Shown piece by piece: positions 3,140 through 63,137 of a stretch of 64,000 bases of DNA (positions are counted from its first letter, which is position 1; each line of letters opens with the position of its first letter). The position numbers were made by a program, and so were the translations under genes. Under the pieces are notes generated by a model that saw nothing but the letters and a program-made list of their open reading frames with translations, did no database searches and was not told the DNA's origin. The stretch spans positions 259,098,001 through 259,162,000 of the forward strand of contig OZ024740.1 of assembly GCA_964016885.1 (NCBI GenBank), given 5' to 3'. This DNA is from Eledone cirrhosa (taxonomy: Eukaryota).

Positions 3140-3737
<598 letters not shown>

Positions 3738-14444: not shown

Positions 14445-14517
<73 letters not shown>

Positions 14518-14519
<2 letters not shown>

Positions 14520-20900: not shown

Positions 20901-23900
20901 AAACTCCATTCCACTTATTCTAGTAGGCTTTTATATATTTATATGTGAGCTGATAGAGTACTGTCTAAGGATTTACAGAAACCCATGAAGCTAGATTTAA
21001 CACCTTTCTAGTGGGTCCGGGTATGATTTTACATTCATTTAAATTATTGACGTATTGTTTTATTGATATTTTTTATCTGTTTGGCCCGAATCTTCCTTTA
21101 TCGATTTTAAATCGTATGGTTGATTGTAGACTTGTTCTATATGTGACGGTATTTTAACGATAGTTATAGCTCTGATTCATCTGAATTATTGAGCCCTCTG
21201 CCGCTCATATCGGATTTCGTTTTTCGTTAACTCGTGCGCCGATTTTTCGATACTCGATCTTTCTAATATATTTAGCTCTGGACATAGCTATCCACCAGTT
21301 AATTTTATTGCTCATATTTTGTCGATTCTATTGAGTGATGAATAGCTTTTGTTTTATTTTAACATGTCTATTGAGCACTCTAATTCGATATGTGTATTTC
21401 CACATTCACTCGAATTTTTTTTCGCGGATATAGGGGTCATCTCCCTTGTCTAATGCCATGTGCGTTTTTCACCGCTAGTTGACTCCTTTGCCGCCAGGAT
21501 AAAACTCGTTGACAACGTAAACTCCATTCCACTTATTCTAGTAGGCTTTTATATATTTATATGTGAGCTGATAGAGTACTGTCTAAGGATTTACAGAAAC
21601 CCATGAAGCTAGATTTAACACCTTTCTAGTGGGTCCGGGTATGATTTTACATTCATTTAAATTATTGACGTATTGTTTTATTGATATTTTTTATCTGTTT
21701 GGCCCGAATCTTCCTTTATCGATTTTAAATCGTATGGTTGATTGTAGACTTGTTCTATATGTGACGGTATTTTAACGATAGTTATAGCTCTGATTCATCT
21801 GAATTATTGAGCCCTCTGCCGCTCATATCGGATTTCGTTTTTCGTTAACTCGTGCGCCGATTTTTCGATACTCGATCTTTCTAATATATTTAGCTCTGGA
21901 CATAGCTATCCACCAGTTAATTTTATTGCTCATATTTTGTCGATTCTATTGAGTGATGAATAGCTTTTGTTTTATTTTAACATGTCTATTGAGCACTCTA
22001 ATTCGATATGTGTATTTCCACATTCACTCGAATTTTTTTTCGCGGATATAGGGGTCATCTCCCTTGTCTAATGCCATGTGCGTTTTTCACCGCTAGTTGA
22101 CTCCTTTGCCGCCAGGATAAAACTCGTTGACAACGTAAACTCCATTCCACTTATTCTAGTAGGCTTTTATATATTTATATGTGAGCTGATAGAGTACTGT
22201 CTAAGGATTTACAGAAACCCATGAAGCTAGATTTAACACCTTTCTAGTGGGTCCGGGTATGATTTTACATTCATTTAAATTATTGACGTATTGTTTTATT
22301 GATATTTTTTATCTGTTTGGCCCGAATCTTCCTTTATCGATTTTAAATCGTATGGTTGATTGTAGACTTGTTCTATATGTGACGGTATTTTAACGATAGT
22401 TATAGCTCTGATTCATCTGAATTATTGAGCCCTCTGCCGCTCATATCGGATTTCGTTTTTCGTTAACTCGTGCGCCGATTTTTCGATACTCGATCTTTCT
22501 AATATATTTAGCTCTGGACATAGCTATCCACCAGTTAATTTTATTGCTCATATTTTGTCGATTCTATTGAGTGATGAATAGCTTTTGTTTTATTTTAACA
22601 TGTCTATTGAGCACTCTAATTCGATATGTGTATTTCCACATTCACTCGAATTTTTTTTCGCGGATATAGGGGTCATCTCCCTTGTCTAATGCCATGTGCG
22701 TTTTTCACCGCTAGTTGACTCCTTTGCCGCCAGGATAAAACTCGTTGACAACGTAAACTCCATTCCACTTATTCTAGTAGGCTTTTATATATTTATATGT
22801 GAGCTGATAGAGTACTGTCTAAGGATTTACAGAAACCCATGAAGCTAGATTTAACACCTTTCTAGTGGGTCCGGGTATGATTTTACATTCATTTAAATTA
22901 TTGACGTATTGTTTTATTGATATTTTTTATCTGTTTGGCCCGAATCTTCCTTTATCGATTTTAAATCGTATGGTTGATTGTAGACTTGTTCTATATGTGA
23001 CGGTATTTTAACGATAGTTATAGCTCTGATTCATCTGAATTATTGAGCCCTCTGCCGCTCATATCGGATTTCGTTTTTCGTTAACTCGTGCGCCGATTTT
23101 TCGATACTCGATCTTTCTAATATATTTAGCTCTGGACATAGCTATCCACCAGTTAATTTTATTGCTCATATTTTGTCGATTCTATTGAGTGATGAATAGC
23201 TTTTGTTTTATTTTAACATGTCTATTGAGCACTCTAATTCGATATGTGTATTTCCACATTCACTCGAATTTTTTTTCGCGGATATAGGGGTCATCTCCCT
23301 TGTCTAATGCCATGTGCGTTTTTCACCGCTAGTTGACTCCTTTGCCGCCAGGATAAAACTCGTTGACAACGTAAACTCCATTCCACTTATTCTAGTAGGC
23401 TTTTATATATTTATATGTGAGCTGATAGAGTACTGTCTAAGGATTTACAGAAACCCATGAAGCTAGATTTAACACCTTTCTAGTGGGTCCGGGTATGATT
23501 TTACATTCATTTAAATTATTGACGTATTGTTTTATTGATATTTTTTATCTGTTTGGCCCGAATCTTCCTTTATCGATTTTAAATCGTATGGTTGATTGTA
23601 GACTTGTTCTATATGTGACGGTATTTTAACGATAGTTATAGCTCTGATTCATCTGAATTATTGAGCCCTCTGCCGCTCATATCGGATTTCGTTTTTCGTT
23701 AACTCGTGCGCCGATTTTTCGATACTCGATCTTTCTAATATATTTAGCTCTGGACATAGCTATCCACCAGTTAATTTTATTGCTCATATTTTGTCGATTC
23801 TATTGAGTGATGAATAGCTTTTGTTTTATTTTAACATGTCTATTGAGCACTCTAATTCGATATGTGTATTTCCACATTCACTCGAATTTTTTTTCGCGGA

Positions 23901-26900
23901 TATAGGGGTCATCTCCCTTGTCTAATGCCATGTGCGTTTTTCACCGCTAGTTGACTCCTTTGCCGCCAGGATAAAACTCGTTGACAACGTAAACTCCATT
24001 CCACTTATTCTAGTAGGCTTTTATATATTTATATGTGAGCTGATAGAGTACTGTCTAAGGATTTACAGAAACCCATGAAGCTAGATTTAACACCTTTCTA
24101 GTGGGTCCGGGTATGATTTTACATTCATTTAAATTATTGACGTATTGTTTTATTGATATTTTTTATCTGTTTGGCCCGAATCTTCCTTTATCGATTTTAA
24201 ATCGTATGGTTGATTGTAGACTTGTTCTATATGTGACGGTATTTTAACGATAGTTATAGCTCTGATTCATCTGAATTATTGAGCCCTCTGCCGCTCATAT
24301 CGGATTTCGTTTTTCGTTAACTCGTGCGCCGATTTTTCGATACTCGATCTTTCTAATATATTTAGCTCTGGACATAGCTATCCACCAGTTAATTTTATTG
24401 CTCATATTTTGTCGATTCTATTGAGTGATGAATAGCTTTTGTTTTATTTTAACATGTCTATTGAGCACTCTAATTCGATATGTGTATTTCCACATTCACT
24501 CGAATTTTTTTTCGCGGATATAGGGGTCATCTCCCTTGTCTAATGCCATGTGCGTTTTTCACCGCTAGTTGACTCCTTTGCCGCCAGGATAAAACTCGTT
24601 GACAACGTAAACTCCATTCCACTTATTCTAGTAGGCTTTTATATATTTATATGTGAGCTGATAGAGTACTGTCTAAGGATTTACAGAAACCCATGAAGCT
24701 AGATTTAACACCTTTCTAGTGGGTCCGGGTATGATTTTACATTCATTTAAATTATTGACGTATTGTTTTATTGATATTTTTTATCTGTTTGGCCCGAATC
24801 TTCCTTTATCGATTTTAAATCGTATGGTTGATTGTAGACTTGTTCTATATGTGACGGTATTTTAACGATAGTTATAGCTCTGATTCATCTGAATTATTGA
24901 GCCCTCTGCCGCTCATATCGGATTTCGTTTTTCGTTAACTCGTGCGCCGATTTTTCGATACTCGATCTTTCTAATATATTTAGCTCTGGACATAGCTATC
25001 CACCAGTTAATTTTATTGCTCATATTTTGTCGATTCTATTGAGTGATGAATAGCTTTTGTTTTATTTTAACATGTCTATTGAGCACTCTAATTCGATATG
25101 TGTATTTCCACATTCACTCGAATTTTTTTTCGCGGATATAGGGGTCATCTCCCTTGTCTAATGCCATGTGCGTTTTTCACCGCTAGTTGACTCCTTTGCC
25201 GCCAGGATAAAACTCGTTGACAACGTAAACTCCATTCCACTTATTCTAGTAGGCTTTTATATATTTATATGTGAGCTGATAGAGTACTGTCTAAGGATTT
25301 ACAGAAACCCATGAAGCTAGATTTAACACCTTTCTAGTGGGTCCGGGTATGATTTTACATTCATTTAAATTATTGACGTATTGTTTTATTGATATTTTTT
25401 ATCTGTTTGGCCCGAATCTTCCTTTATCGATTTTAAATCGTATGGTTGATTGTAGACTTGTTCTATATGTGACGGTATTTTAACGATAGTTATAGCTCTG
25501 ATTCATCTGAATTATTGAGCCCTCTGCCGCTCATATCGGATTTCGTTTTTCGTTAACTCGTGCGCCGATTTTTCGATACTCGATCTTTCTAATATATTTA
25601 GCTCTGGACATAGCTATCCACCAGTTAATTTTATTGCTCATATTTTGTCGATTCTATTGAGTGATGAATAGCTTTTGTTTTATTTTAACATGTCTATTGA
25701 GCACTCTAATTCGATATGTGTATTTCCACATTCACTCGAATTTTTTTTCGCGGATATAGGGGTCATCTCCCTTGTCTAATGCCATGTGCGTTTTTCACCG
25801 CTAGTTGACTCCTTTGCCGCCAGGATAAAACTCGTTGACAACGTAAACTCCATTCCACTTATTCTAGTAGGCTTTTATATATTTATATGTGAGCTGATAG
25901 AGTACTGTCTAAGGATTTACAGAAACCCATGAAGCTAGATTTAACACCTTTCTAGTGGGTCCGGGTATGATTTTACATTCATTTAAATTATTGACGTATT
26001 GTTTTATTGATATTTTTTATCTGTTTGGCCCGAATCTTCCTTTATCGATTTTAAATCGTATGGTTGATTGTAGACTTGTTCTATATGTGACGGTATTTTA
26101 ACGATAGTTATAGCTCTGATTCATCTGAATTATTGAGCCCTCTGCCGCTCATATCGGATTTCGTTTTTCGTTAACTCGTGCGCCGATTTTTCGATACTCG
26201 ATCTTTCTAATATATTTAGCTCTGGACATAGCTATCCACCAGTTAATTTTATTGCTCATATTTTGTCGATTCTATTGAGTGATGAATAGCTTTTGTTTTA
26301 TTTTAACATGTCTATTGAGCACTCTAATTCGATATGTGTATTTCCACATTCACTCGAATTTTTTTTCGCGGATATAGGGGTCATCTCCCTTGTCTAATGC
26401 CATGTGCGTTTTTCACCGCTAGTTGACTCCTTTGCCGCCAGGATAAAACTCGTTGACAACGTAAACTCCATTCCACTTATTCTAGTAGGCTTTTATATAT
26501 TTATATGTGAGCTGATAGAGTACTGTCTAAGGATTTACAGAAACCCATGAAGCTAGATTTAACACCTTTCTAGTGGGTCCGGGTATGATTTTACATTCAT
26601 TTAAATTATTGACGTATTGTTTTATTGATATTTTTTATCTGTTTGGCCCGAATCTTCCTTTATCGATTTTAAACCGTATGGTTGATTGTAGACTTGTTCT
26701 ATATGTGACGGTATTTTAACGATAGTTATAGCTCTGATTCATCTGAATTATTGAGCCCTCTGCCGCTCATATCGGATTTCGTTTTTCGTTAACTCGTGCG
26801 CCGATTTTTCGATACTCGATCTTTCTAATATATTTAGCTCTGGACATAGCTATCCACCAGTTAATTTTATTGCTCATATTTTGTCGATTCTATTGAGTGA

Positions 26901-28676
26901 TGAATAGCTTTTGTTTTATTTTAACATGTCTATTGAGCACTCTAATTCGATATGTGTATTTCCACATTCACTCGAATTTTTTTTCGCGGATATAGGGGTC
27001 ATCTCCCTTGTCTAATGCCATGTGCGTTTTTCACCGCTAGTTGACTCCTTTGCCGCCAGGATAAAACTCGTTGACAACGTAAACTCCATTCCACTTATTC
27101 TAGTAGGCTTTTATATATTTATATGTGAGCTGATAGAGTACTGTCTAAGGATTTACAGAAACCCATGAAGCTAGATTTAACACCTTTCTAGTGGGTCCGG
27201 GTATGATTTTACATTCATTTAAATTATTGACGTATTGTTTTATTGATATTTTTTATCTGTTTGGCCCGAATCTTCCTTTATCGATTTTAAATCGTATGGT
27301 TGATTGTAGACTTGTTCTATATGTGACGGTATTTTAACGATAGTTATAGCTCTGATTCATCTGAATTATTGAGCCCTCTGCCGCTCATATCGGATTTCGT
27401 TTTTCGTTAACTCGTGCGCCGATTTTTCGATACTCGATCTTTCTAATATATTTAGCTCTGGACATAGCTATCCACCAGTTAATTTTATTGCTCATATTTT
27501 GTCGATTCTATTGAGTGATGAATAGCTTTTGTTTTATTTTAACATGTCTATTGAGCACTCTAATTCGATATGTGTATTTCCACATTCACTCGAATTTTTT
27601 TTTCGCGGATATAGGGGTCATCTCCCTTGTCTAATGCCATGTGCGTTTTTCACCGCTAGTTGACTCCTTTGCCGCCAGGATAAAACTCGTTGACAACGTA
27701 AACTCCATTCCACTTATTCTAGTAGGCTTTTATATATTTATATGTGAGCTGATAGAGTACTGTCTAAGGATTTACAGAAACCCATGAAGCTAGATTTAAC
27801 ACCTTTCTAGTGGGTCCGGGTATGATTTTACATTCATTTAAATTATTGACGTATTGTTTTATTGATATTTTTTATCTGTTTGGCCCGAATCTTCCTTTAT
27901 CGATTTTAAATCGTATGGTTGATTGTAGACTTGTTCTATATGTGACGGTATTTTAACGATAGTTATAGCTCTGATTCATCTGAATTATTGAGCCCTCTGC
28001 CGCTCATATCGGATTTCGTTTTTCGTTAACTCGTGCGCCGATTTTTCGATACTCGATCTTTCTAATATATTTAGCTCTGGACATAGCTATCCACCAGTTA
28101 ATTTTATTGCTCATATTTTGTCGATTCTATTGAGTGATGAATAGCTTTTGTTTTATTTTAACATGTCTATTGAGCACTCTAATTCGATATGTGTATTTCC
28201 ACATTCACTCGAATTTTTTTTCGCGGATATAGGGGTCATCTCCCTTGTCTAATGCCATGTGCGTTTTTCACCGCTAGTTGACTCCTTTGCCGCCAGGATA
28301 AAACTCGTTGACAACGTAAACTCCATTCCACTTATTCTAGTAGGCTTTTATATATTTATATGTGAGCTGATAGAGTACTGTCTAAGGATTTACAGAAACC
28401 CATGAAGCTAGATTTAACACCTTTCTAGTGGGTCCGGGTATGATTTTACATTCATTTAAATTATTGACGTATTGTTTTATTGATATTTTTTATCTGTTTG
28501 GCCCGAATCTTCCTTTATCGATTTTAAATCGTATGGTTGATTGTAGACTTGTTCTATATGTGACGGTATTTTAACGATAGTTATAGCTCTGATTCATCTG
28601 AATTATTGAGCCCTCTGCCGCTCATATCGGATTTCGTTTTTCGTTAACTCGTGCGCCGATTTTTCGATACTCGATC

Positions 28677-28688
<12 letters not shown>
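14924..28688. repeat. Tandem array: 22 full copies plus ~160 bp of a 618-bp unit, >99.9% identical
   Basis: cgtatggttg recurs at 14931, 15549, 16167 ... 28530. Only five variants seen by eye: T8>T9 near 18330, 20800 and 27600; A>T at 19140; T>C at 26674. No ORF in the track. Confidence 0.98.
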
Positions 28689-28717
<29 letters not shown>

Positions 28718-28956: not shown

Positions 28957-29322
28957 AGTTTAAAACTAGTTTGACCATTACTCAACAGAGAACTCGTTAC
29001 TTGGGATATTAGAGTATGGCTGTATTATAATGAGTCGGGACCCGGTGACTGAGCTCTTGCCGTTTTAATGGCTAGTTCCAGTGTGTGGGGGGGTGTAGAT
29101 CCCGAGTAAAATCAGGAGGTAACCATAGTCAAAAGGGGTACTTAGTTCATTAGCAGAGTATAAACATCATGTGCCAATAGTAGAAACAATTATTAAATAT
29201 AGAAATGGCTTTTACTCATACAGGAGTAGAACTGTTTCATTCGTATGAAATCACCGCGAATGCCCCTGGTGATTTCACACGAATGAGATAGTTCTAGTCT
29301 TGTAGAAGCCATTTCTACGATA

Positions 29323-29510
29323 AATAATTGTTTCTACTTTTTGGCACAAGGCCAGCAATTATCCCAGTACATTACTGGTACTTTATTTTATCGACCCCGT
29401 AAGGATGAAAGGCAAAGTTAACCTCGGCGGGAATTGAACTCAGACCGTAAAGAGACGTAACTATGCTGGAAAGCATAATCCAACCCTCTACCGATACTGC
29501 CAATTCACTA
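29323..29510 (-). mobile_element. tRNA-derived SINE
   Basis: Reverse complement of the 6003-6193 family. Confidence 0.88.
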
Positions 29511-29513
29511 ATG

Positions 29514-29678
<165 letters not shown>

Positions 29679-34940: not shown

Positions 34941-37900
34941 CATGATGATGGCCGCCAACTCGTGTTCGCGCATTGCCATCGCCTGATAAAATGCTAAAAA
35001 TTGAGAGGCACGATTGTGGCTCTTTAAACCAGCCAAAGACTTTCACCCTCTGGCACACACATGTCAACCGTAGGCTCCTCTGGGACTTTCCACTGCTTGG
35101 TTCTGACTGTGTGTTCTCGTGTGTCTTTTAAGTCCGCCCATGCTAGCACATTCCTAGCCACATTCCTTACAACTTTTCAGATCATAATCTACATGAGGTC
35201 TACTGATATGACTACTGATATGTCCATGCCTAATCAAACCAGCTTTGCTCAGACAGACTCAACCACAGTGTTGTGTTGACAAACCAGATGTGGCTCAACA
35301 GCAGGCAGTTCAGAACAGTCCCTTTTCCTTACCTTTCTGTTCAGTGTTAGGTGTTCTCTTCAACGAGTTTCAAAGTGTTCGCTTCCTGACTTGATCAAAC
35401 GTCTCCACTTCACCCACTTCTCAGCCATTTTCTCCCACTCGTCAGATGAAATTCCAGCGCAAGCCAAGGTGCTCCTGATACAGTCCCGGTACCGCGTTTT
35501 TGGTTTGTGTGGTGGTCGCCTTCCTTCGCACAATTTACAGTAGTAAAGTTGCTTTGGAATACGATCATCAGACATCCGGACCACATGACCGCACCACCTC
35601 AACCGATGCCGAAAGATCAGGCTCTCTATACTCATGCATCTACTCCATCCAAGAACTTCCAAATCACTGACAAACATTTTCCATCACACCCCAAGTATCT
35701 TACGAAGAGATTGTCGGTGAAACCTCTCCAGTTCCTTGAGGTGCTTTCTGTATGTGACCCACGTTTCACAAGCATAAAGCAAAGAGGAGACGACCCACAA
35801 GTCAGATACAGTTTTACTTTGGTTTCAATAGTGATACCTCGTCTGGCCCATAAAATTTCATTCAGCCGTCGAAAAGCATCACTGGCTTTCTTGATTTTTA
35901 AGGATATCATGAAGTGTGCATGAATTATTCAACGTACTTCCAAGGTAAACAAACTTGTCAGAAACATTTAATCTCTTTCCGTACACGTACACACTTGGTG
36001 GTAGTGTATTCTTTCCCATGTGCTGGATGATACATCACAACAGTCTTTTCCAAGTTTATTGTGAGGCCCAAAGCGCTGCAAGCTTCAGAGAAAGAGTTCA
36101 TAATATGCTGCATGTCACTTTGTGAGTGTGTAAAAAGATCGTAGTCATCTGCATACAAAAACTCTCGTATATGCACCAAAGCGCCTGATGTTGAACAACC
36201 CTCCTGATGTAAACTCCATGCGAACAATTTTTCGTGACCCAAGCCTTCATGTCATCATGAAAAAGACCCAGAATTTTCACAAACTTTGGAGGGCTACCAA
36301 GCTTTTCCAAAATTTTCCACGACGTAGTTCGATTGACGGTCAAAGGCTTTGTCAAGTCAACAAAGACCTGGTAAAAGTCCATATGTAGTTCGATACACTT
36401 TTCTTGCAGCTGCCGAGCAGAAAAGATCATATCTACTGTTCCTCTTTCGTTTCTGAACTCACACTGCCACTCAGGCAACACATTCAGATCAGCCTTTGAG
36501 ATCGATCTATCCATCAAAATTCGACACATCACTTTACCAACTACTGAAAGAAGTGATATGCCACGATAATTGCCACATTTGACTTTCCCACCCTTTCCTT
36601 TATGGAGAATCACCATGAGCGCATCCTTCCAATCTTGTGGGACACCCTCATCTTCCTACACCTTTTTCATGGGGTTAGTCAGGCGCTGCGTGAAGTTTTC
36701 ACCACTGCACTTCAAAACCTCTGCACTCAAACCATCCATACCAGGAGACTTACCACAGTCCCACTTATGCACAGCAGAAGTCACTTCTGCAAGAGAAGGT
36801 ACATCAGCCATTTCATGCTTCACTGGTTCAATAAGAATGGAGCAAATGAAATCATCATCAACCTGGGATGGCTCGTTCAAGAGCTCATCAAAGTGATCTC
36901 TCCATCTGTTCAGTATGTCTTTTGGATCAAAGGGCCATACACTTATCTGAGTAGAGTGTGCAGCAGTTTCACATTGTTGCCATCTGAGGTTGCTTGAACT
37001 TCATCTGCTTTGTTGCTCCACCAGGTATTTTGCATGACCTTGAGTTTCACCTGCACCTCCTTCTTTATCTGTCTATAATGTTCATAATTGTCAACAACAG
37101 AGCTACCACCTTTAAGAATTACATCGAGTGGTTTGTGTTTACTGTCCAGCAGAGCCTTGACCTCCTAGTCATTCTCATCAAACCAGTCCTTCTGTTTTCT
37201 TGTGACAAAGCCAAGAACCTCTGCTGAACCATCATAGACCGAGTTCCTGAAGTCATTCCAGTTATTCTCACAATCAATGTTTTCAAGCCTGCGATGCAGC
37301 TCTTCTTTGACACCCTTATCTTTCATACGATCTATATTCAAGCGCTTTGGAATATGGACACCATTTGCTCTTGTTTGAGGTTTGATCACGAAGTTTTCTT
37401 TGGCTCGCACCAGAGGATTGTCTGTCATGCACTCTGCGCTACGCAGATCACACGTGTTTGATATCCAGCATGTCACGTTTCTTCACAAGAACTTAGACGA
37501 TCAGATGCCACACTTTGAACCCAGGATGCATCCATGTTGTCTTGAACTTATCCTTTTGCTGGAACATCGTGCTTGCAATAAACAAATCTAACTCCACGCA
37601 CATCTGTAGCAAGAGGAGACCATTGTTGTTACATTTCCCTATGCCATGTCTGCCGATCACAATTTTATCTGCTGAAGGAATCTTTTTGACAAGTTCATGT
37701 AAAAGGCGAGTTTCTCGTCTTTATTGGAGTTCATCGTTGGGGCATATACACTGACATTGGTAAGGTAGCGATTGTACATCAGAGGAATTCTCATTGACAT
37801 AAGGCGATCACTGATGCCACTTGGTAACTGGTCAAGTGTCAATACTAAAGACGTTTTCACTGCAAAAGCCACACCTGCCTCCCTTTTGCATCCTGCTGTT

Positions 37901-38324
37901 CTGCCACTCCAGTAAAACGTGTAGCCACTGGACATCTCAGTGATATGACCTTCTTCGAGTAGCCTTGTTTCAAATAAGGCAACAATATCCATATTTTATC
38001 GTCCCAGCTCTTTGGCAATAAGAGCTGATCTTCTTTCTGGTTGTGATTCTGAAGACACCAAATCTAATAAGGTCCGGATGTTCCAGCAACCAATATTCAT
38101 AGGTTTCAACTTATTCTTCGTATTGACAGGATGCCGACCAGGCCCATGCAGCGGTGCCAAAGGGCACCTGCCGGACCAGACCCTTTCACCATCAATTCCA
38201 GAGCCCCCATTGTTATTAATTCGTACATTATCATGGTTCACCATTGAATATTTTTGCCATTTTTGGCTACGACCAGCCACAATGCAACAAATAATTTGTT
38301 TAAATCGATCAGGTGACGTCTGTG

Positions 38325-38327
<3 letters not shown>
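34941..38327 (-). mobile_element. RTE-clade LINE, near full-length, decayed (APE endonuclease + RT)
   Basis: MNIGCWNIRTLLD..ERRSALIAKELGR, DIVALFETRL, SVYAPT, GKSPGMDG, CGNYRGISLLSVVGK, RGTVDMIF..RQLQEK, FVDLTK, EFLYADD, RLRWCGHVVRMSDDRIPKQL; (CAT)n-type tail at ~34941; many stops and frameshifts. Confidence 0.93.
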
Positions 38328-38377
<50 letters not shown>

Positions 38378-38451
38378 TATTGAAGTTTCCGTTGAAAATT
38401 GGAAAAGTCATAGGAGTGAAGAGTGCTCTATGTAAGTACCAGAGCAAAATT

Positions 38452-39282: not shown

Positions 39283-39677
39283 CTTTCTCTCTCTTTCTCT
39301 CTCTCTCTCCATGTGCGCTATTTTATGTATTTTATATATAGCCTACTTAGATGTGTCTAGGATACTAATTCATCACCCACTGGTGAGCTTGGATTGGTAT
39401 TTCTATTCACAATTAACTTTGCGAAACAACAACAAGTTGTCTGGGTGATTGGTAGTTACCACAATTCCGGTTTGTATTCGTTTTTCTTTTTTATATTCTA
39501 TTATAATATACGACTCAGAAATATCTCTTTCTTAGACCTATTTTATTGTAAGAGACTATTTTGAGTTCCTAACTCAATATATACCTTTGATATATATACA
39601 TATATGTATGTGTGCATGAGTATACTTTCACCTCCCTCAAATTGTTGGCCTTGTGTCTAAATCAGAAGCCATTATCA

Positions 39678-40153
39678 GTTGGTGAATTGGCAGTATCGGT
39701 AGAAGGTCGGACGCCATGCTTTGACACATAGAGTTACGGTCTGTGTTCAAACACCGCCGAGGTTAACTTTGCCTTTCATCCTTACGGGGTCGATAAACTA
39801 AAGTACCAGTAATGTACTGGAATAATTGCTGGCCTTGTGCCAAAAGTAGAAACAATTATAAGTTGAGTGCCTAATGGTGACAGATTGGCAGTATCAATAG
39901 AGAGTCAGAAATAAAGAACCAGTAACGCACTAGTGTGATTTAATCGACTTCACCCTCCCCTAAAATTGTTGGTCTTGTGCTTAAATCAGAAACCATTATT
40001 ACTTGAGGGTGGTGGAGTTACGTCCCTTTATGGTCTGAGTTCAAATCCCGCCGAGGTTAACTTTGCTTTTCATCCTTACGGGGTCGATGAAATATAGTAC
40101 CAGTAATACACTGGCTAATTGCTGGCCTTGTGCCAAAAGTAGAAACAATTATT
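39678..40153 (+). mobile_element. Cluster of tRNA-SINE copies and fragments
   Basis: Copies at ~39678-39859 and ~40007-40153, with an internally deleted copy between them. Confidence 0.85.
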
Positions 40154-40685
40154 ACTTGAGGGAATAATATCTTTCCGTCAGTTTGGAAACCAGATGGTTA
40201 ATTAATTGTCAAATTCCATTGTCGACCTCTTTCGTCACACATACTATGACCTGTTCAGTGACTATCCTTATTTCACGGTGTCGCCTCTTTGTTTTGACTT
40301 TCTTCTATATAATTCAGCTTGTCCGAAGAGAAAGACAAGTAAGATAAACCACCGTATATCATTTGTGCATTTCTGCTGGACAATTATATGGGGGACATGT
40401 ACGTATAAATATACATACAAACACACACATACATACATCCATACATCCATCCATCCAAACATGCATACATACATGCATACATACATACATATATAAATAG
40501 ATTCATAAATATGTGTGTATCTGCGTGTGTGTATATATGTATATATACATATATACGAGTATATATACATACCTGCATATATATATATGTATGAATAAAT
40601 CAGAATGGATGCTGTAAAAACCAGCTAGATCATTACTCACCAGAGTACTGGATACTTGGGGTAGTAGAGTGAGTAATATGTATGA

Positions 40686-40749
<64 letters not shown>

Positions 40750-41216
40750 AAATACAAGTATTTCTGCTCCTAACAGTAAAGTTTTAGTAGCTGATGATTG
40801 AGTGTTTTATCTTATGGTTCCTGCCATTTCCATTTTCACTCATGATACAGCTATTTAGAATGCCTAAATCTGGGGAATTTACCATTCTTAAGTAAATATT
40901 TTTCTTCGCTATCCGATTTGAAAATAATAGAGATGTTACCATCTATCTAAGCTCTCTGCCTTGCGATCCGACTTTTCTTTCGCAATGCATCTATCTATAT
41001 ATATATATATATCAATGATATTAATAAATGGAAAGTATATTTATAAAACCATATTTATTCTATTATGTATATTTCAAGGGTACCAAAATTTGGTACGCTT
41101 TCATCAGATAAAATACAAAGTTTGATTTATAAGTATTGACATATCCAGGAATGAAACCTTAACGGTTCAAGTTTTACCTAAATATCCCTTTGCTTATATA
41201 TTTATATACATATATA

Positions 41217-41300
<84 letters not shown>

Positions 41301-41304
<4 letters not shown>

Positions 41305-42345
41305 GAAGAGAGAAGAAACATTTAGATATAATTAGTAATAAAATGTATCATACCTAAACTGCTCCTAGATTCCTCGACTACGCAGTTTCGTGGCATAAAC
41401 AAAAACAATACATCATAAAGATATAGTCCCTGCGAGGTCTGCCGACTTATCAAGAGGATACCTCATTTTACTAGTCTCAAGAACGCGTCTACACGACGTG
41501 AGAAAGAATCCCAAAAGGCGGAGGGGGAGATAGTCACGCGATATAACGGTCGAGAATATCTAAATGTTTCTTCTCTCTTCATAATGTAGTTTTAACTCTG
41601 ATACTGGTTCAGTCTAGTTCAACCGGATTGGTCTGTCCCAGTCATTCATTGAGCAACATCGGTGAGGCTGGCACCCTTAACTCACGGTTGGGTGTGGATG
41701 CATTCATGTATATGTGTGTGTCCGCATGTATCTGTGTGTTTCTAAATATATTGTTAATAACTCCCTCTGGTTGAGTAATCTTTGAAGTGTGGTGACTGCT
41801 GGAAAGCTGCCATTACTCATACTCCTCGCCTCCTTCACCACCTCTTCTACGGCTTCGATATAAATACCCCTTCCGCCTCTGTGGTATTTTCTTCGGGGTT
41901 ATAAGAGGCTTAGCTCTGTTTCTCGACCGTTATATCGCGTGACTATCTCCCCCTCCGCCTTTTGGGATTCTTTCTCACGTCGTGTAGACGCGTTCTTGAG
42001 ACTAGTAAAATGAGGTATCCTCTTGATAAGTCGGCAGACCTCGCAGGGACTCTATATCTTTATGATGTATTGTTTTTGTTTATGCCACGAAACTGCGTAG
42101 TCGAGGAATCTAGGAGCAGTTTAGGTATGATACATTTTATTACTAATTATATCTAAATGTTTCTTCTCTCTTCATAATGTAGTTTTAACTCTGATACTGG
42201 TTCAGTCTAGTTCAACCGGATTGGTCTGTCCCAGTCATTCATTGAGCAACATCGGTGAGGCTGGCACCCTTAACTCACGGTTGGGTGTGGATGCATTCAT
42301 GTATATGTGTGTGTCCGCATGTATCTGTGTGTTTCTAAATATATT
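41301..42345 (+). mobile_element. Retrozyme/mini-PLE, family M: 593-bp monomer, ~195-bp direct repeat and 255-bp inverted 5' segment
   Basis: 41557-41752 repeats at 42150-42345; 41301-41556 is the reverse complement of ~41920-42177; (TA)n on both flanks. Confidence 0.88.
42018..42107 (+). ncRNA. Hammerhead ribozyme with U3-A8 variant core
   Basis: Stem I tcctc/gagga; TTGATAA 42023; extended stem II gt(c)ggca.../...tgccac; GAAA 42089; stem III ACTGCGTAGT (self-complementary with G-U); GUC site at 42102. Confidence 0.78.
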
Positions 42346-42364
42346 ATATATATATATATATATT

Positions 42365-42600
42365 CTAGGGCGCGTAAAATTCCCGAGATCCATGGACGAG
42401 TTCTCTCCAGCGGTCTCTGTCCCTCATTATCGCTGCCATGTCCTGCGTCTCCAACAGATCAGTGTCTGTCCTTAGGGCATCAGCATACTTTAACCTTGGT
42501 CTTCCTCTTCCAGTGTGTCCATGTAGGGGCTTCCACAAGAGCACTGAGTGCAATGTCACATTTTTACTTGTGGTATATAAATATTGAGTTATGTTGTAAT
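42365..42600 (-). mobile_element. 3' fragment of an RTE-like LINE
   Basis: VLLWKPLHGHTGRGRPRLKYADALRTDT...MRDRDRWRE, a typical RTE C-terminus. Confidence 0.75.
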
Positions 42601-42662
42601 AAATCACTGCCAAGACTGGAATTGAACCATCAGCATAGTAGAGGTATGTCATGCATCAATGT

Positions 42663-42733
42663 ATGTATTTTATCTGATGAGGACGTACTGAAAAAACAGC
42701 ACAGTACCTCCGAAATATATATAATAAAACATA
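42663..42733 (+). ncRNA. Type-I hammerhead ribozyme (family N)
   Basis: Stem I ttttat/ataaaa; CTGATGA 42674; stem II gga-c-gtactg...cagtac-c-tcc; GAAA 42712; stem III ATATATAT; AUA site. Confidence 0.88.
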
Positions 42734-42872
42734 TATTTTGATTATGTGAATGTATCCATTTATTAATATTTTGAATAATATTAATAACTCCAGAAAACTT
42801 CACTGTTGAATGCTTTTAATCTAGTGTAAAACTATATTCATTGAATAATCAATGAACCTTGTTTAACATTTG

Positions 42873-42925
<53 letters not shown>

Positions 42926-43218
42926 GGAATTTTACCTGCCCTAGATAGAGAGATAGATACATACATATATAAATAGGGAGACACAAAGCAGGCTTTGTTT
43001 AGAAGCGGCTAGCGAAATTGAAAATTAGGTGGTAATATTTGCTTACGCTGTATTTGACTAAATAGAATTAGTCTGTTAGTTGGGATTTTAAAAGGATGAG
43101 TATTGACGTACATGGGACACAAACCCACATCTTTGGTTTGCCGGACCAATGTGTAACCATTACACCAACATACCACCCATGGTTCCCTCCATTCAATTAG
43201 AAGCTATATAACCATAGC

Positions 43219-43310
<92 letters not shown>

Positions 43311-43316
<6 letters not shown>

Positions 43317-43873
43317 CGTAAAATAAGAAAATTATAAAATTAACTTACTTACTAAAATATCACTTCCAACTAATTAGTTTCTGGAATGGAGTAAATATAT
43401 TTTCCGAAGAAGATATTGAGAAACATTCCGTCGTCGGGAAGTCTATTCTCATCTAAGTTTCCAGGCAAAGCGAGGACTCTGGAAACTTATTAAAAAATAA
43501 TTCAGTGGATAGGAAATAGCAAAGCGTGGACTGAATTCCAAGCCATTGAGAAAATCACTGCCTCTGCGTCTGTGGCAAATTCAAAAAGAATCAATCACGT
43601 GACATCGAGGTCAATCAGTGGAAAGTGGTTTGCTAATAAGACAGCGGCCTGCCTACTACCATAGCAGCAGTCATGGCCAATATTGCTCGACAAATAATTT
43701 GGAGATAATTATAAAGAATTAATATCTAGTAACATATATATACATACAGATGCATATCAATGCTAGCAAATATATAGGTTTTGTCTTAGTAACATTGTGG
43801 TTCAATGCATGGGGCTGCAGAACAATAATATGAGAGACGTAAAATAAGAAAATTATAAAATTAACTTACTTAC

Positions 43874-44638: not shown

Positions 44639-44664
44639 TGTGTGTAATGTGTGCCTACCATAAT

Positions 44665-44855
44665 AATAATTGTTTCTACTTTAGGCACAAGGCCAGCAAT
44701 TACCCAGTGCATTACTGGTACTTTATTTTATCGACCCCGTAAGGATGAAAGGCAAAGTCAACCTCGGCGGGATTTGAACTCAGATCGTAAAGGGACGTAA
44801 CTATGCTGGAAAGTATGGCGTCCGACTCTCTACCGATACTGCCAATCCACCGCCA
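44665..44855 (-). mobile_element. tRNA-derived SINE
   Basis: Full-length reverse-complement copy. Confidence 0.9.
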
Positions 44856-46743: not shown

Positions 46744-47029
46744 TTATGTACAACATATGATATACATATTCATATCATATCATATATATGTGTGTGTGTG
46801 TGTATGTATATATAAAGAGATGGGGAATGAGAGAGAGAGAGAAAAAATTGACTATTACAAGACTAGACCTGCATTGTCTCAAATGAAACAGTTGTAATCC
46901 TGTAGAAGTCATTTCTATATAAAATAGAGCTGCCTATACTCAACTAAAGTATTGAGTACCTTTTTAACTGTGATCGCTTCTAGATATCTTTTGAGGAAGC
47001 CACCCATAATTATGTATAAATATATATAC

Positions 47030-47310
47030 AATAAATGTAATCTGAGTTTTTCGAATATTAATAATTGTTTCTACTTTTGGCACAAGACCAGTAAATACCC
47101 AGTGCATTACTGGTACTTTATTTTACCGACCCCGTAAGGATGAAAGGCAAAGTTAACCTCGGCGGGATTTGAACTCAGAATGGCAATGGCCGTAATTCTA
47201 TGCGTCAAAGCATGGCGTCCTACAATAACATTCGATTCGTTTGCAATTTTGCAAACAAGCCTCAATTTTATAGCCATGTCAGTAGAATGAAGTGTTCATT
47301 CTACTCGCTG
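47030..47310 (-). mobile_element. Family-F fragment carrying an embedded SINE
   Basis: F sequence on both sides of SINE 47060-47220. Confidence 0.75.
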
Positions 47311-57159: not shown

Positions 57160-58180
57160 AAATAAAAATGAAGAGCAACGACAAGAAAGACTCCAAAAAC
57201 AAAGAAAAATAACAGCGAAATATAAGCAAAAGGAATCAGAAGAACAAAGGTCAAAAAGGCCTGTTGATGATAGGACAAGGAAAGCAACTTTTCGTCAAGA
57301 GGAATAAGATGTGCTAAACTACAGCACAAAACAGAGAGGATGTATCAGATGCACAAAGATCATCAACAAAGAATAAGTACACAGAATAGACAGGCTTAAT
57401 CAGAGGAACAAAGATCAAAAAGTCTTGCTGGAGATAGGATAATGGAAGCAACTATTCATCAAGAGGAATCAAATGTACGAAAACCATGACGACAGCAAAT
57501 GGAGAAAAATAGAGCAGCTCAAAGGCGACATGAAGAAACTGAAGCTCGAACAACTCAAAGGCTATGTGTATAGAGACCAAAAACAGACGATTTATGATTC
57601 AAAAAGGTTTCCAAGTGGAACTTTGCTGCTTTTAGTTACAATTCACACCAAAACTATGCCCCAGAACCTTTAATTCGAATTTGCTCAATGAACAAAATTT
57701 GTCCAAATTGTGGTACTAAAAATGGGATGTGTCAACTGGATTGTGTTGTTTGAATGGACAGATTAAGTTTAGATTATTACCTGAAACACCAGAACCCTTG
57801 ACGGAACTGTTGATTGGTGCAACAACTGAATCAAAACACTTTCTTCAAAATATCTACAGGTACAATAATGCATTACAAATGACATCATTTGGTGTAAATG
57901 TCATCCGTGAAGGTGCCTTTATACCCACTTTCAAGATCCAATGGCAAATGTACCATAGAATTGGGCCACGTCAGCCACTTTCAGAAGAACCAAAATATTT
58001 ACAATTGTATTTCATCAGTGATATAAAAACCCAAGCACAGACAAAATATGAAAGGAATAATGAAACTAAATATGAAATCATGTTGCAACTAAAAGCTAGA
58101 AGTTTCAAATAAACCATAGACAAATTTTTTAAAGAAATTTCCTTATTTTCTTTAACACGGCCAATGCCGGGTGCTTCTGC

Positions 58181-59055: not shown

Positions 59056-59624
59056 TCGCATCACCGCCACCACTGCCTCGGTATCGACATCACCACCACC
59101 ACTGTCTCAGTATCGCCAACGCCGCCAGTCTCTGCTGGCTACCACTTCCACATTATAGAATTCCTACTACTAACAAAGAGGAAGGCATCAAAATATATAG
59201 ATAGACTCAAAAGAAAAAAGAAAAAACAAACAACAAAAGCAGCACAGCAACAACAGTAAAAAACGAGAAAAACAGAGAAAAACAAAAACAAAAAAAGAAA
59301 CCCCAAAAACGTAAAGAAAATAAGAATGAAGAGAGAAGCAGGCGGACGGACAGAGAAGAGGAGGGAAAAAGTAAAACTTAAAAAACAAAAACTAAGTCAG
59401 ACATTCGAATACTACATTACAATTAAACTTATGCTTATTCATTTTTGGGGCCCTTTCTGCCCGTGTGTTTGTTTGTTTATGTGTGTCCGTATACAGCGTG
59501 GTGATAATGCCACACAAGGGCCAAGTGGGATGGCGGATCCACAGATGGCTATGTAAACATACATTCGCCAATCCTCGATAAGAGTGTTTAAATATCGAAC
59601 ATAAACAGTTCGAATAACGGTGAA

Positions 59625-62600
59625 ATGGAGACTAGAACGTCATGTGACAGACTCTCACCCAACAGGTGCCCCCTGGCTCAGCAGCAGGAACCTGACTGTC
59701 AACCAAATACTGCTGATGTTGGAGGAAGAAGAAGAAGGAAAGGGGCCAGAACCAACTGGACGAAAGAATTGAATAGAACTGTTATGCAATGCTACCTGAA
59801 AAGTAACCCCAAGGAGAGGGGCTACAGGAGACGGATGCATAACATCTGGAACGAGATTGGTTTATTTAAATTAGATGAACAAAAATTGGCCGGGCAGGCT
59901 CGGGTAATAAGAACTAATGGGTGGATAAGCGAGCTGGAACTGGAGGAACTGAGCAGAGAGAATGGCTTGGAGATGGCGGGTGTAGTATGCCAGACAAGCG
60001 AGCCGGCGGGAAATGAAGGTGAGGAGGTCCTGAGAACGGAGGAACCACCCGAAGCAGACAATGATCTGAATACTGAGATAAATAATACCTGGAACAGAGA
60101 TACGGCCACTGAGGAGATGAATGCTGACGGGCTAGGACAAGATTCGGTTGACATCCTAAATTTAGTGGTAGATGAGTTGAACAATGATAGTGGGAGACCT
60201 ATGAACCTAAGATTTGTAGACAGGAAAAAGTTAAAAGAAACAACAGCTAAGGTAAACAAAGTCATCCCATACCTTGAGGCGAGGAGTCTTCACCAGTGCA
60301 ACAATATCCTCAAAGCAACAGCAAATACGGTGAGGAAACTACTTGGTATAAAAGCGAGAGGAAACAACAGACAAGAAAGAGCAGAGCCGTGGTGGAAGAA
60401 GCGACTGAGTGGGCAAATCGGGGAAATGAGAAATGACATAGGAAAGCTTGAGTCACTACTGAATGGGACACTAAAAAACATAGGCACTAAAAATAGACTG
60501 GAAATAAAATACAAAACTAGGAGTAAAAAGCTAAATATTATCATAGAGGAATTGAAGCAACGCATTGTAGCAAAGAGTGCCAAAATCAGGCGATACGAGA
60601 ACAGAGTCAGTCAGTATAAACAGAACCGCATGTTCGACAACAACCAGAAGATGCTGTTTGGACAGCTTGAGGGGAAAGAAAGAGGCAACGACTTGATCCC
60701 TGGGGCGGAACAAGCTAAAACATTCTGGAGAGGAATATGGGAGCAGGATGTTAGACACAATGCCCAGGCAGGGTGGATTGAGACAGTACAGAGGGAGATC
60801 GGTGAGCAGGCACAGCAACAGACTGATTTGAGTATCACAGTTGAAACTCTTAAGGGGCAAGCCAAAAAACTAACCAACTGGAAATCACCAGGCCCAGATG
60901 GTGTGCAGGGGTATTGGATTAAACATTTAACATCCCTCCACCCGAAGCTGACGGCCATGTTCAATGACTGCTTGGTGTCGGGTGAGGTGCCAGAGTGGTT
61001 GACAAAAGGTACCACAGTTCTGATAATGAAAGACCGAATCAAGGGTAATGATGTTACCAACTATAGACCTATCACATGTCTGCCCGTAATGTGGAAACTG
61101 TTGACGAGCATTGTGTCTGAGGAAATCTACCATCACCTCCACACAAACAACTTGTTGCCGGACGAACAGAAAGGATGCCGAAAGAAGTCACGTGGTACAA
61201 AGGACCAGTTGCTTATTGATAAGATGGTAATGGGGAATTGCAGGAGGAGACACACTGATCTTGCCATGGGATGGATAGACTACAGAAAGGCATTTGACAT
61301 GGTGCCTCATTCCTGGATCACCAAAAGCCTGGAGATCTTCAGGGTGGCAGATAACATCAGACAGTTGCTGGGCAGGAGTATGGGGTCCTGGGAGACAGAG
61401 TTGACATCAACTGGAGTATCCTTGGGAAGCGTGAAGATCAAGAGAGGTATCTTCCAGGGAGATAGCCTGTCCCCTCTGTTGTTTGTCCTTGCCCTGATGC
61501 CCTTGACCATTATGCTGCGAAAAGTGAGAGCAGGATACAAGTTGGGAAGGGGAGAGCTTACCATCAATCACCTCCTCTTCATGGACGATCTTAAGCTCTT
61601 CGGGAAAAGTGAGAAGGAGTTGGATGTGCTTGTTGACACTGTCCGTATTTTCAGCAGTGATATATGTATGCAGTTTGGTATTGGTAAATGTGGTGTCATT
61701 GTGATGAGGAGGGGTAGGTTGAGCAGAAGTAACGAGATCCAGATACCAACAGGTGAGATGATAAAGGAAATTGACTCTGAGGAAGGATACAAGTATTTGG
61801 GCGTTCTGGAGGCTGATGGCATAAAGAACAAAAAAATGAAGGAATTGTTAAGAACTGAATACATTCGGAGAGTAAGGAGCGTATTGAAGTCACATCTGAA
61901 CAGCAGAAATGCCATAAGCGCAGTAAATTCCCGAGCTGTGTCTATTATTAGGTACAGTGCGGGAATTCTGAGATGGAATGTTGCTGAACAAAAAGAAATG
62001 GATAGGAAGACTAGGAAGCTATTGACTATCTACAACATGTTCCACAAGAGGAGTGATGTCGATAGACTCTACCTAAGGAGATCTGAGGGTGGAAGAGGTC
62101 TTATCAGCATAGAGGACTGTGTTCAGATGGAGAAAAACAACCTATACAAATACGTGACCTATAGTAAGGAGCCAATGCTCAGAGCTGTACTGAAGGAGGG
62201 GACAGTAGGCCAGGGGATACCCAAGGAGGAAATAACATCAAGGAGGAAGAGCAGCCTTAAGGGAAAATCCCTTCATAGTACCTTCTTTGAGAAAACTGAA
62301 TTTAGAGATCCACAGACATGGAACTGGTTGAGAAGAGGAGACCTCAAAAAGGCTACAGAAGGAATGCTAATGGCTGCGCAGGAGCAGGCCCTCAAAACGA
62401 AGTGGTTGAAGCACCATATCTACAAGGAGGAGGCTAGCCCACTGTGCAGGATCTGTGGAGAGAGAGAGGAGACTGTGGCTCACATTGTGTCCGAGTGTAA
62501 ACACCTAGCCCAGACCCACTATAAGGGCTGGAGACACGATGTGATGGGCAGGGTGATCCACTGGCACCTGTGCAAAGTAAACAATCTACCACATTCTGAG

Positions 62601-63017
62601 AAATGGTATGAGCATAGGCCAGAGGCGGTGATGGAGAACAGTCAGGTGAAGGTGCTGTGGGATTTTAGGATACAGACGGACAAAAAACTGGAACACAATA
62701 GACCTGACCTGGTGGTTGTGGACAAAGAAAAAAGATCGTGCCTGATTGTGGATGTGGCCTGCCCGTTCGACACGAGAGTGCAAGAGAAGGAGAGGGAGAA
62801 AATTAACCGATACCAGGACCTAAAGTGGGAGGTGAAAAGGATTTGGAACAGCCATGAAGTCAAAGTGATCCCGATTGTCATAGGCGCACTGGGGACTATC
62901 TCCAAAGGTTTCCAGGGATGGTTAAAGAAAATCGTCCCCTTCACGCTTTTTGGAACGCTTCAAAAGGCATGCTTGCTTGGAACGGCAAGAACCCTCCGAT
63001 ACGTCGTGAATATCTGA
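59625..63017 (+). CDS. Reverse transcriptase with CCHC zinc knuckle and restriction-like (PD..D) endonuclease, 1130 aa
   Basis: NWTKELN..VMQCY..RGYRRRMH.IW N-terminus; NWKSPGPDG, NYRPITCL, QKGCR..SRGTKDQL, WIDYRKAFD, RGIFQGDSLSPLLF, HLLFMDD, YKYLG; CRIC...ETVAHIVSEC; RHD; RPDLVV...IVDV.CP; K..RY.DL. Confidence 0.96.
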   Translation: METRTSCDRLSPNRCPLAQQQEPDCQPNTADVGGRRRRKGARTNWTKELNRTVMQCYLKSNPKERGYRRRMHNIWNEIGLFKLDEQKLAGQARVIRTNGWISELELEELSRENGLEMAGVVCQTSEPAGNEGEEVLRTEEPPEADNDLNTEINNTWNRDTATEEMNADGLGQDSVDILNLVVDELNNDSGRPMNLRFVDRKKLKETTAKVNKVIPYLEARSLHQCNNILKATANTVRKLLGIKARGNNRQERAEPWWKKRLSGQIGEMRNDIGKLESLLNGTLKNIGTKNRLEIKYKTRSKKLNIIIEELKQRIVAKSAKIRRYENRVSQYKQNRMFDNNQKMLFGQLEGKERGNDLIPGAEQAKTFWRGIWEQDVRHNAQAGWIETVQREIGEQAQQQTDLSITVETLKGQAKKLTNWKSPGPDGVQGYWIKHLTSLHPKLTAMFNDCLVSGEVPEWLTKGTTVLIMKDRIKGNDVTNYRPITCLPVMWKLLTSIVSEEIYHHLHTNNLLPDEQKGCRKKSRGTKDQLLIDKMVMGNCRRRHTDLAMGWIDYRKAFDMVPHSWITKSLEIFRVADNIRQLLGRSMGSWETELTSTGVSLGSVKIKRGIFQGDSLSPLLFVLALMPLTIMLRKVRAGYKLGRGELTINHLLFMDDLKLFGKSEKELDVLVDTVRIFSSDICMQFGIGKCGVIVMRRGRLSRSNEIQIPTGEMIKEIDSEEGYKYLGVLEADGIKNKKMKELLRTEYIRRVRSVLKSHLNSRNAISAVNSRAVSIIRYSAGILRWNVAEQKEMDRKTRKLLTIYNMFHKRSDVDRLYLRRSEGGRGLISIEDCVQMEKNNLYKYVTYSKEPMLRAVLKEGTVGQGIPKEEITSRRKSSLKGKSLHSTFFEKTEFRDPQTWNWLRRGDLKKATEGMLMAAQEQALKTKWLKHHIYKEEASPLCRICGEREETVAHIVSECKHLAQTHYKGWRHDVMGRVIHWHLCKVNNLPHSEKWYEHRPEAVMENSQVKVLWDFRIQTDKKLEHNRPDLVVVDKEKRSCLIVDVACPFDTRVQEKEREKINRYQDLKWEVKRIWNSHEVKVIPIVIGALGTISKGFQGWLKKIVPFTLFGTLQKACLLGTARTLRYVVNI

Positions 63018-63132: not shown

Positions 63133-63137
<5 letters not shown>

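Follow-up and report, generated by a model that had tools for sequence, protein, structure and literature searches.

In the Cercyon-type PLEs of Schistosoma mansoni, a dedicated descriptor returned about 1,300 matches to hammerhead ribozymes with a U3-A8 core (Cervera and De la Pena 2014, PMC4209133). As described there, these ribozymes have a type I fold, a short helix I and a palindromic helix III for dimer cleavage, one group of them (the family 3 row of the alignment) reads UUGAUAA, and opposite-strand pairs occur 100-700 bp apart. The short palindromic helix III is given as a dimer hallmark of PLE hammerheads (PMC4209133, PMC6765202). The C3-G8 pair has been confirmed for the hammerhead (PMC3884650), and U3-A8 is listed as a natural covariation of it for which earlier in vitro activity is cited (PMC3088659); the three mollusc rows in the alignment of PMC4209133 are all C3-G8. 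Stem I/stem II pseudoknots are reported in about 40% of hammerheads (PMC3088659).

Retrozymes form a second point of reference. Metazoan non-LTR retrozymes are non-coding tandem units with a type I hammerhead, a GC content below 50% and a structured RNA; they coexist with PLEs, whose proteins are proposed as mobilisers (PMC7229834; bioRxiv 2026.07.22.740005). One proposal derives them from PLEs as non-autonomous elements and gives a unit size of 51-972 bp (bioRxiv 2026.07.22.740005), and most of their RNA circles are predicted to leave the ribozyme free, some mussel ones excepted (PMC7229834). In plant LTR retrozymes and hammerhead viroids the ribozyme is instead described as blocked in a long hairpin by a complementary strand (Cervera et al. 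2016, PMC4918200); the plant monomers measure 600-800 nt, are GC-rich, and come with type III hammerheads in LTRs, PBS/PPT and 4-bp target duplications.

Insertions of endonuclease-bearing PLEs (Penelope/Poseidon, Neptune, Hydra and Naiad, and PAc of Anolis) combine a partial tandem with a 5' inverted truncated copy, lie in AT-rich or (TA)n targets, and have two 3' ends and a hammerhead upstream of the priming region. The tandem plus inverted 5'-truncated copy and the (TA)n bias are described in bioRxiv 2021.04.23.441226 and PMC3846280, as is a 30-40-nt tail between the two 3' ends, which PMC3846280 treats as optional; self-priming on an antisense template is described as another route to head-to-head repeats (PMC3846280). 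In Anolis, the PLE protein nicks AT-rich DNA on both strands and extends both, reverse transcription begins at internal RNA sites downstream of the hammerhead, the ribozyme is protein-assisted, and hammerhead mutants were without effect on insertion in vitro (PMC11167929).

The 64-kb stretch of Eledone cirrhosa DNA analysed here (the window) is AT-rich, microsatellite-laden animal DNA, and it holds a recently inserted, non-coding, Penelope-style insertion with a 593-nt unit (Table 1). The insertion consists of 1.33 direct copies (41556-42345) and a head-to-head inverted arm (41300-41556). The direct repeat is exact over 197 nt (41556-41752 = 42149-42345; 100% identity, period 593), and the inverted arm is the reverse complement of 41920-42178, the sole difference being two nucleotides (CT) inserted or deleted in the extension of helix II; the inverted arms are 363 nt apart. 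With 0 substitutions in 454 compared bases, divergence between the repeats is bounded at 0.66% (95%), which bears out the first-pass annotation's reading of a young 593-nt element. Because the arms of two other hammerhead palindromes in the window are 97.9% and 96.0% identical, decay of such arms evidently happens in this genome, and the 593-nt insertion is the youngest of the three. Both outer ends lie inside (AT)n, a microsatellite in which a target duplication is unreadable. Relative to the cut site the breakpoints fall at -183, +47, +76 and +243; none coincides with the cut, and both arms cross it.

The annotation had also called the Penelope architecture full. The tandem plus inverted layout is indeed there, but the upstream direct repeat has no hammerhead, and the direct array thus contains one sense ribozyme in 1.33 units, short of the two consecutive tandem units, each with a complete hammerhead, by which a retrozyme is counted as active (Li, Clavereau and Pollet, bioRxiv 2026.07.22.740005). 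Blastn found no copies of the unit in the 64-kb window besides the element's own repeats, a search of the window for a 14-nt motif with up to 3 mismatches returned the element's own two exact occurrences plus two others no better than chance, and no relatives of the unit occur among 50,697 phage and 72,556 plasmid records. The proposed check of core conservation on other genomic copies was confined to the window, where no other copy of the family was found.

Table 1. Features of the 593-nt element and its surroundings (window coordinates; offsets are relative to the cleavage site).
Feature	Position	Strand	Remarks
(AT)n tract, left target flank	41195..41301	.	overlaps the element's first bases
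Inverted 5'-truncated arm	41300..41556	-	spans -183 to +76; 2-nt deletion
Second U3-A8 hammerhead copy	41371..41458	-	core 41447-41453, C17 at 41376
Upstream partial direct repeat	41556..41752	+	+47 to +243 of the preceding unit; without hammerhead
Complete 593-nt unit	41753..42345	+	43% GC
TATAAA, sole occurrence in the direct array	41859..41864	+	possible internal promoter, judged from sequence
Type I hammerhead	42018..42107	+	helices I-III, core U3-A8, predicted cut after C42102
Structured domain 3' of the cut	42103..42345	+	contains both apparent priming sites
(AT)n tract, right target flank	42339..42363	.	first bases overlap the element's 3' end
ACTC box near apparent insertion ends	41760, 42188, 3604, 42787, about 14580 (-)		three hammerhead families

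The core reads TTGATAA at 42023-42029 (+), as the annotation had it, and again at 41447-41453 (-). The second occurrence had been offered as the same variant in the inverted arm, which is correct, but it does not amount to evidence of conservation, since both copies belong to one insertion. Helix I has 5 bp (42018-22 with 42103-07). Helix II occupies 59 nt with an internal loop (42030-88) and comprises the G10.1-C11.1 pair (G42030-C42088) and one further pair, a bulged C, 4 bp and a long extension. GAAA stands at 42089-92, helix III (42092-42101) has 3 bp and a 4-nt loop, and U42101 is followed by C42102, where the GUC cleavage triplet ends. G12-A13-A14, A15.1-U16.1, H17 and G10.1-C11.1, by which type I is recognised, are all present; the strict C3-G8 consensus is replaced by a Watson-Crick-compensated 3-8 pair. 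The helix III segment pairs with itself over 10 of 10 nt, two of them as G-U (-12.9 kcal/mol), so that helix III is, on predicted pairing, of the self-complementary dimer type found in dimer-cleaving PLE hammerheads.

A type I descriptor run on 3000 dinucleotide shuffles of the unit gave 4 loose matches and none at the strictness of the real motif, the strict thresholds having been set after the motif was seen. Over the whole window it gave 8 real matches, 6 with C3-G8 and 2 with U3-A8, whereas among block-shuffled windows 11 of 30 had one loose match, none had more and none had a strict one. An unpaired 3-8 position was found in none of the 8 window hammerheads, although the descriptor allowed one, and the descriptor found no hammerhead on the unit's minus strand. 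Two random core substitutions produce a Watson-Crick 3-8 pair in only 0.4-0.9% of cases; this compensated double change and the intact rest of the motif make up the case for selection. CpG decay as the origin of C3U and G8A was ruled out, as neither site is in a CpG context, and the permuted hammerheads described in PMC10085705 were found not to apply to the motif. No hammerhead family of Rfam matched anywhere in the window at the gathering threshold, and in 40500-43500 even a cut-off of E 10 brought up none. The expectation that standard searches would overlook this core was accordingly right for Rfam, but the 6 canonical-core hammerheads of the window are missed as well, and the miss is therefore not due to U3-A8 alone.

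Against the described systems the element is a composite. With the S. mansoni Cercyon-type hammerheads it shares the type I fold, the U3-A8 core of family 3, the short helix I, the palindromic helix III and the presence of an opposite-strand pair (PMC4209133). With some 1,300 of these on record, U3-A8, a rare core variant, is not new in a PLE setting. The annotation's description of it as a functional natural covariant agrees with PMC3088659, and its C3-G8 pair with PMC3884650. Unlike them, the element has G10.1 directly after A9, without the extra nucleotide, which is missing also from a few of the PLE-linked rows in PMC4209133; it also has the 59-nt helix II with internal loop and a 10-nt helix III palindrome. 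Of the non-LTR retrozyme traits it shows a unit within the 51-972 bp range, 43% GC, a non-coding sequence and a type I hammerhead, and a PLE remnant lies in the same window; it departs from metazoan retrozymes in its 593 nt, against the usual 150-450, in its single sense ribozyme, in its non-canonical core and in a predicted self-blocked state. The blocking strand, as a prediction only, and the size recall plant LTR retrozymes, but the hammerhead is of type I order rather than type III in LTRs, GC is 43% and the layout is that of a PLE. Endonuclease-bearing PLE insertions are matched in the head-to-head layout, the AT-rich/(TA)n target, the two 3' ends and the hammerhead upstream of the priming region; the element differs from them in having no RT or GIY-YIG frame, no ribozyme in the upstream repeat, and a 167-nt 3' offset in place of the 30-40-nt tail. 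Viewed as a whole, the locus operates in the manner of a non-LTR retrozyme placed there by PLE machinery.

Other hammerhead elements share the window. A palindromic insertion at 3261-3687, with arms 97.9% identical, carries two canonical-core type I hammerheads with a long helix II (3361 -, 3499 +) and ends at about +46 and +133 in (AT)n. A second family with canonical cores occupies 14517-14927, 41002-41184 and 42655-42877; it includes the palindrome 14603-14927 (96.0%), and its single copies at 41107 (-) and 42674 (+) closely flank the 593-nt element. About 22 head-to-tail copies of a 618-nt unit (14924-28691, 99.9% identity) start inside the right arm of that palindrome and end in (AT)n; this unit gave no hammerhead with the type I descriptor, no Rfam match and no 100-aa frame, and may be a PLE-mobilised array that lacks a ribozyme, or else a young satellite. 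Among the remaining repeats, an open frame of 1141 codons that contains RVT_1 and, towards its C-terminus, a zinc/nuclease-like region (59592-63017; partial second copy at 63133-64000, 95.6%) belongs to what we take to be an R4/Dong-type non-LTR element. Broken LINE pieces with RT similarity lie at 35360-38400 (-) and about 42363-42560 (-), presumably RTE-like by their motifs, the latter ending in the same (AT)n tract that borders the 593-nt element on its right. A tRNA-like Rfam match (43104-43174 (-), 40.1 bits) is probably a SINE head or pseudogene, and a 130-codon frame at 57720-58112, without a Pfam match, presumably corresponds by motif to the start of a Helitron Rep protein. Dispersed SINE-like repeats of 140-200 nt, 80-97% identical, are found at 6004-6193, 10239-10412, 29315-29516, 39673-39859, 44655-44854 and 47026-47223.

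Folding predictions set the ribozyme in an unusual context. A strand at 42146-42186 (+), here called the lock, is predicted to pair with 42089-42131 through 36 pairs, 9 of them G-U, in a duplex that covers GAAA, helix III, the cleavage site and the 3' strand of helix I. The duplex reaches -33.1 kcal/mol, a value that none of 500 shuffles attained, whereas the opposite strand gives -7.3; the predicted probabilities of its pairs are 0.70-1.0. The G sits on the ribozyme side in all 9 G-U pairs, and 9 of the 10 transition differences between the lock arms retain pairing as G-U (p=0.011), so that the lock may be an old fold-back copy whose strands have stayed paired as RNA while wobble pairs softened the duplex. 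The upstream direct repeat (41556-41752) contains most of a further lock strand, there without its partner. At three canonical hammerheads of the window a comparable lock was not found (94, 329 and 49 of 500 shuffles as good, against 0 of 500 for the U3-A8 element); the idea that hammerheads in the window generally have a lock is thus unsupported. An antisense hammerhead in the lock region was likewise rejected, 379 of 500 shuffles equalling its complementarity to the ribozyme's 5' half. Such a lock over the ribozyme would be unusual for animal elements.

A possible 5-bp Watson-Crick pseudoknot would join 42012-16 to 42038-42042 in the helix II internal loop (+); it was spotted post hoc, and one as good is available to 0.45% of window 10-mers and to 6 of 583 unit 10-mers. 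The same 42012-16 segment could alternatively lengthen helix I, or pair with 42019-42022 into a hairpin that blocks the ribozyme. As a circle the unit has 62% of its bases paired and, against 40 shuffles, a z score of -4.3 on the plus strand and -0.1 on the minus strand. The segment 3' of the cut (42103-42345) folds beyond shuffles on the plus strand (z -4.8; +0.4 on the minus), and the signal lies neither in the hammerhead region alone (z -0.7) nor in the upstream part (z -1.1). In an isolated 92-mer the hammerhead fold comes to within 1.3 kcal/mol of the optimum. For the monomer in longer transcripts the gap to the best fold is 5.1-8.0 kcal/mol as long as the lock is incomplete and 9.2-10.8 once it has formed, and in two other fragments 3.0 and 8.7 kcal/mol, in energies that give no credit for pseudoknots or dimers; helix I has a predicted probability of about 0 in context. 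In a transcript through the whole locus the ribozyme is predicted to be buried in a duplex with the inverted arm. The monomer hammerhead is thus not the predicted ground state, and the ribozyme may be weak or silent, or may never form. The description of all three stems as intact holds as far as the capacity to pair goes, with the qualifications that helix III is of the dimer type and that the monomer fold is not favoured; similarly, 'active non-coding' is right as to non-coding, while 'active' draws no support from a single sense ribozyme, breakpoints that all lie away from the cut and a predicted fold that blocks the ribozyme.

The two 3' ends of the element, +76 for the inverted arm and +243 for the direct arm, suggest two priming sites, and their 167-nt offset greatly exceeds the 30-40 nt published for the PLE tail. 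A short and a long end at (AT)n recur in other hammerhead elements of the window, at about +44 to +46 and +133 in one family and at +52, +125 and +154 in the other. An ACTC box follows both ends of the 593-nt element, 8-10 nt on, and the short ends of the two other families at 5-10 nt; the motif was picked post hoc, with a chance of 0.7% at both element ends, and is a candidate priming signal. In the predicted lock fold the +76 site lies opposite the centre of helix III. The structured 3' domain, 42103-42345, is a candidate binding region for a mobilising protein.

The element offers no protein of its own. Its longest Met-started frame is 48 aa, a frame with RT and GIY-YIG of the kind that would make it an autonomous PLE is absent from the unit, and a homolog search with a 64-aa minus frame yielded 14 candidates, none at E up to 1. 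A 49-aa frame at 41864-42010 has a faint likeness to PLE RT motifs and one match to a 759-aa protein (E 9.8e-9 summed over 6 stretches, 32% identity), probably by chance, and a sigma-70 promoter scan of the DNA was at chance level and irrelevant to an animal. A frameshifted PLE remnant does occur in the window at 94-2560. It was missed by Pfam and shows RT, a CxxxxCxxC linker and a GIY-YIG-like end, with a decayed hammerhead-like motif near 2519; among named proteins, the best relative of its broken RT/endonuclease frame (94-2105) comes from Octopus vulgaris and is 71% identical. Blastn detected no DNA similarity between this remnant and the 593-nt unit.

The explanation that we favour, and consider probable, is that the element is a non-autonomous, retrozyme-like PLE derivative, copied from uncut or circular RNA into a nicked (AT)n tract and bearing a gated ribozyme. 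From the layout, youth, lack of coding capacity and hammerhead pattern observed at this one locus we infer the following course. A source array elsewhere would be transcribed into multimeric or circular 593-nt RNA, and a PLE reverse transcriptase/GIY-YIG protein acting in trans would nick both strands of the (AT)n tract, whereupon cDNA would be primed from both ends at two internal RNA sites. The direct arm would start at +243 and extend for 790 nt, more than one unit, before halting at +47; the inverted arm would start at +76 on the opposite strand and halt at -183; and the two 5'-truncated cDNAs would be joined head to head. Such overlapping, two-primed arms resemble LINE-1 twin priming. The arms overlap by 30 nt, as would be expected had one multimeric or circular template served both, and since no breakpoint falls at the cut and both cDNAs would cross the scissile bond, that template was presumably uncut or re-ligated; the 2-nt indel between the ribozyme copies is slightly easier to explain by a linear multimer, or by slippage at a later time, than by a single circle. 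The U3-A8 hammerhead would probably be competent but gated, requiring a partner ribozyme for the 10-bp helix III and perhaps helped by the 5-bp pseudoknot or a protein, until the lock strand, made 40-80 nt later, shuts it, which would protect multimers or circles. The 593-nt copy itself is probably a dead end for ribozyme processing, given its one sense ribozyme and the perfect read-through duplex with the inverted arm. In favour of this explanation are the PLE-like layout, the short and long ends shared with other hammerhead elements of the window, the PLE remnant in the same window, the self-pairing helix III, the lock and the strand-specific folding. Against it stand the folding of the hammerhead region alone, no better than shuffles, the energetic cost of the monomer hammerhead, the post hoc choice of the pseudoknot, the lack of DNA similarity to the PLE remnant, the long 3' offset, the lack of effect of Anolis hammerhead mutants on insertion in vitro (PMC11167929) and the report that only 1 of 9 predicted Xenopus retrozyme dimers cleaved (bioRxiv 2026.07.22.740005).

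The crossing of the cut site by both arms would also fit an element that is mobile with its ribozyme as a passenger, copied by way of the structured 3' domain while the U3-A8 motif is silent or irrelevant. The out-competed hammerhead fold, with its near-zero helix I probability, points the same way, as do the dispensability of cleavage for Anolis PLE insertion in vitro (PMC11167929) and the good proliferation of hammerhead-less Naiads (bioRxiv 2021.04.23.441226). Against this, the double change is compensatory, the other core positions, G10.1-C11.1 and the palindromic helix III are all intact, and a lock without an active ribozyme would be pointless; we regard this reading as unlikely, if still one to be reckoned with. 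The absence of coding capacity bears on a further possibility, that the locus is a one-off: either an autonomous PLE copy that has lost its interior, or a fragment of terminal repeat that was locally duplicated and inverted as DNA within the (AT)n tract. PLE microhomology deletions are published (PMC3846280), the locus is single in 64 kb, and a borderline RT-like alignment of 41828-41986 to PLE proteins scores 27.7 bits, reached by none of 60 shuffles, the best of which scored 27.3. But a young deletion should keep open frames, and the longest stop-free stretch here is 80 codons, while none of the 7 small frames examined matches Pfam with an E below 0.09; the best score in a profile HMM RT test falls on the opposite strand and is equalled by 8 of 300 shuffles, and the strand-specific structure is of an RNA-level kind. 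A one-off origin is accordingly improbable.

A blocked ribozyme in a circle with most of its bases paired is the pattern of viroids and plant retrozymes (PMC7229834, PMC4918200), and the unit could on that basis be a circular RNA of viroid type that cleaves freely and multiplies as RNA, and that the reverse transcriptase of a PLE captured on a single occasion. Yet its minus strand has no hammerhead and folds no better than shuffles, the complementarity stops short of the ribozyme's 5' half, and the layout is PLE-like, which together make such an origin very unlikely. Near-perfect inverted and direct repeats beside long microsatellites also invite suspicion of an assembly or sequencing artefact such as a fold-back read; the arms, however, are 363 nt apart and differ by an indel, the two other hammerhead palindromes have diverged arms, and both ends lie in (AT)n as expected of PLE targets, leaving an artefact scarcely credible.

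Within the favoured reading of a gated, retrozyme-like PLE derivative, a bolder proposal, speculative and by our estimate unlikely to be right in full, is a viroid-style switch in a cephalopod retrozyme lineage: a pseudoknot-assisted, dimer-type U3-A8 hammerhead would cut only during a brief interval or once a Penelope protein had opened the G-U-tuned lock, and the hairpin would position the +76 start, making gating and priming one device. The core variant and the tandem-plus-inverted layout are already published; the lock over the ribozyme's 3' half, the possible 5-bp pseudoknot and the two priming sites suggested by the 3' ends are new here, as predictions only. The literature searched contained no cephalopod case in which U3-A8 and the PLE layout go together with a long helix II, a possible pseudoknot and a self-lock, nor, by title and with few subscription journals covered, was a study of a cephalopod hammerhead ribozyme or retrozyme, which suggests that cephalopod hammerhead elements are undescribed.

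The 593-nt element is a compact, young and intact test case, even though its headline features are in print. In one unit it unites a core with a compensated 3-8 pair, a dimer-type helix III, a possible pseudoknot, a predicted lock and two priming sites that can be read from its ends, and it lends itself to an in vitro test of cleavage gating and to asking whether uncut or circular RNA is the template. The role of the hammerhead in endonuclease-bearing PLEs has been described as unclear (bioRxiv 2021.04.23.441226). If the coupled gating and priming switch is real, the element would provide a direct test of hammerhead function in Penelope transposition and of the origin of head-to-head insertions.
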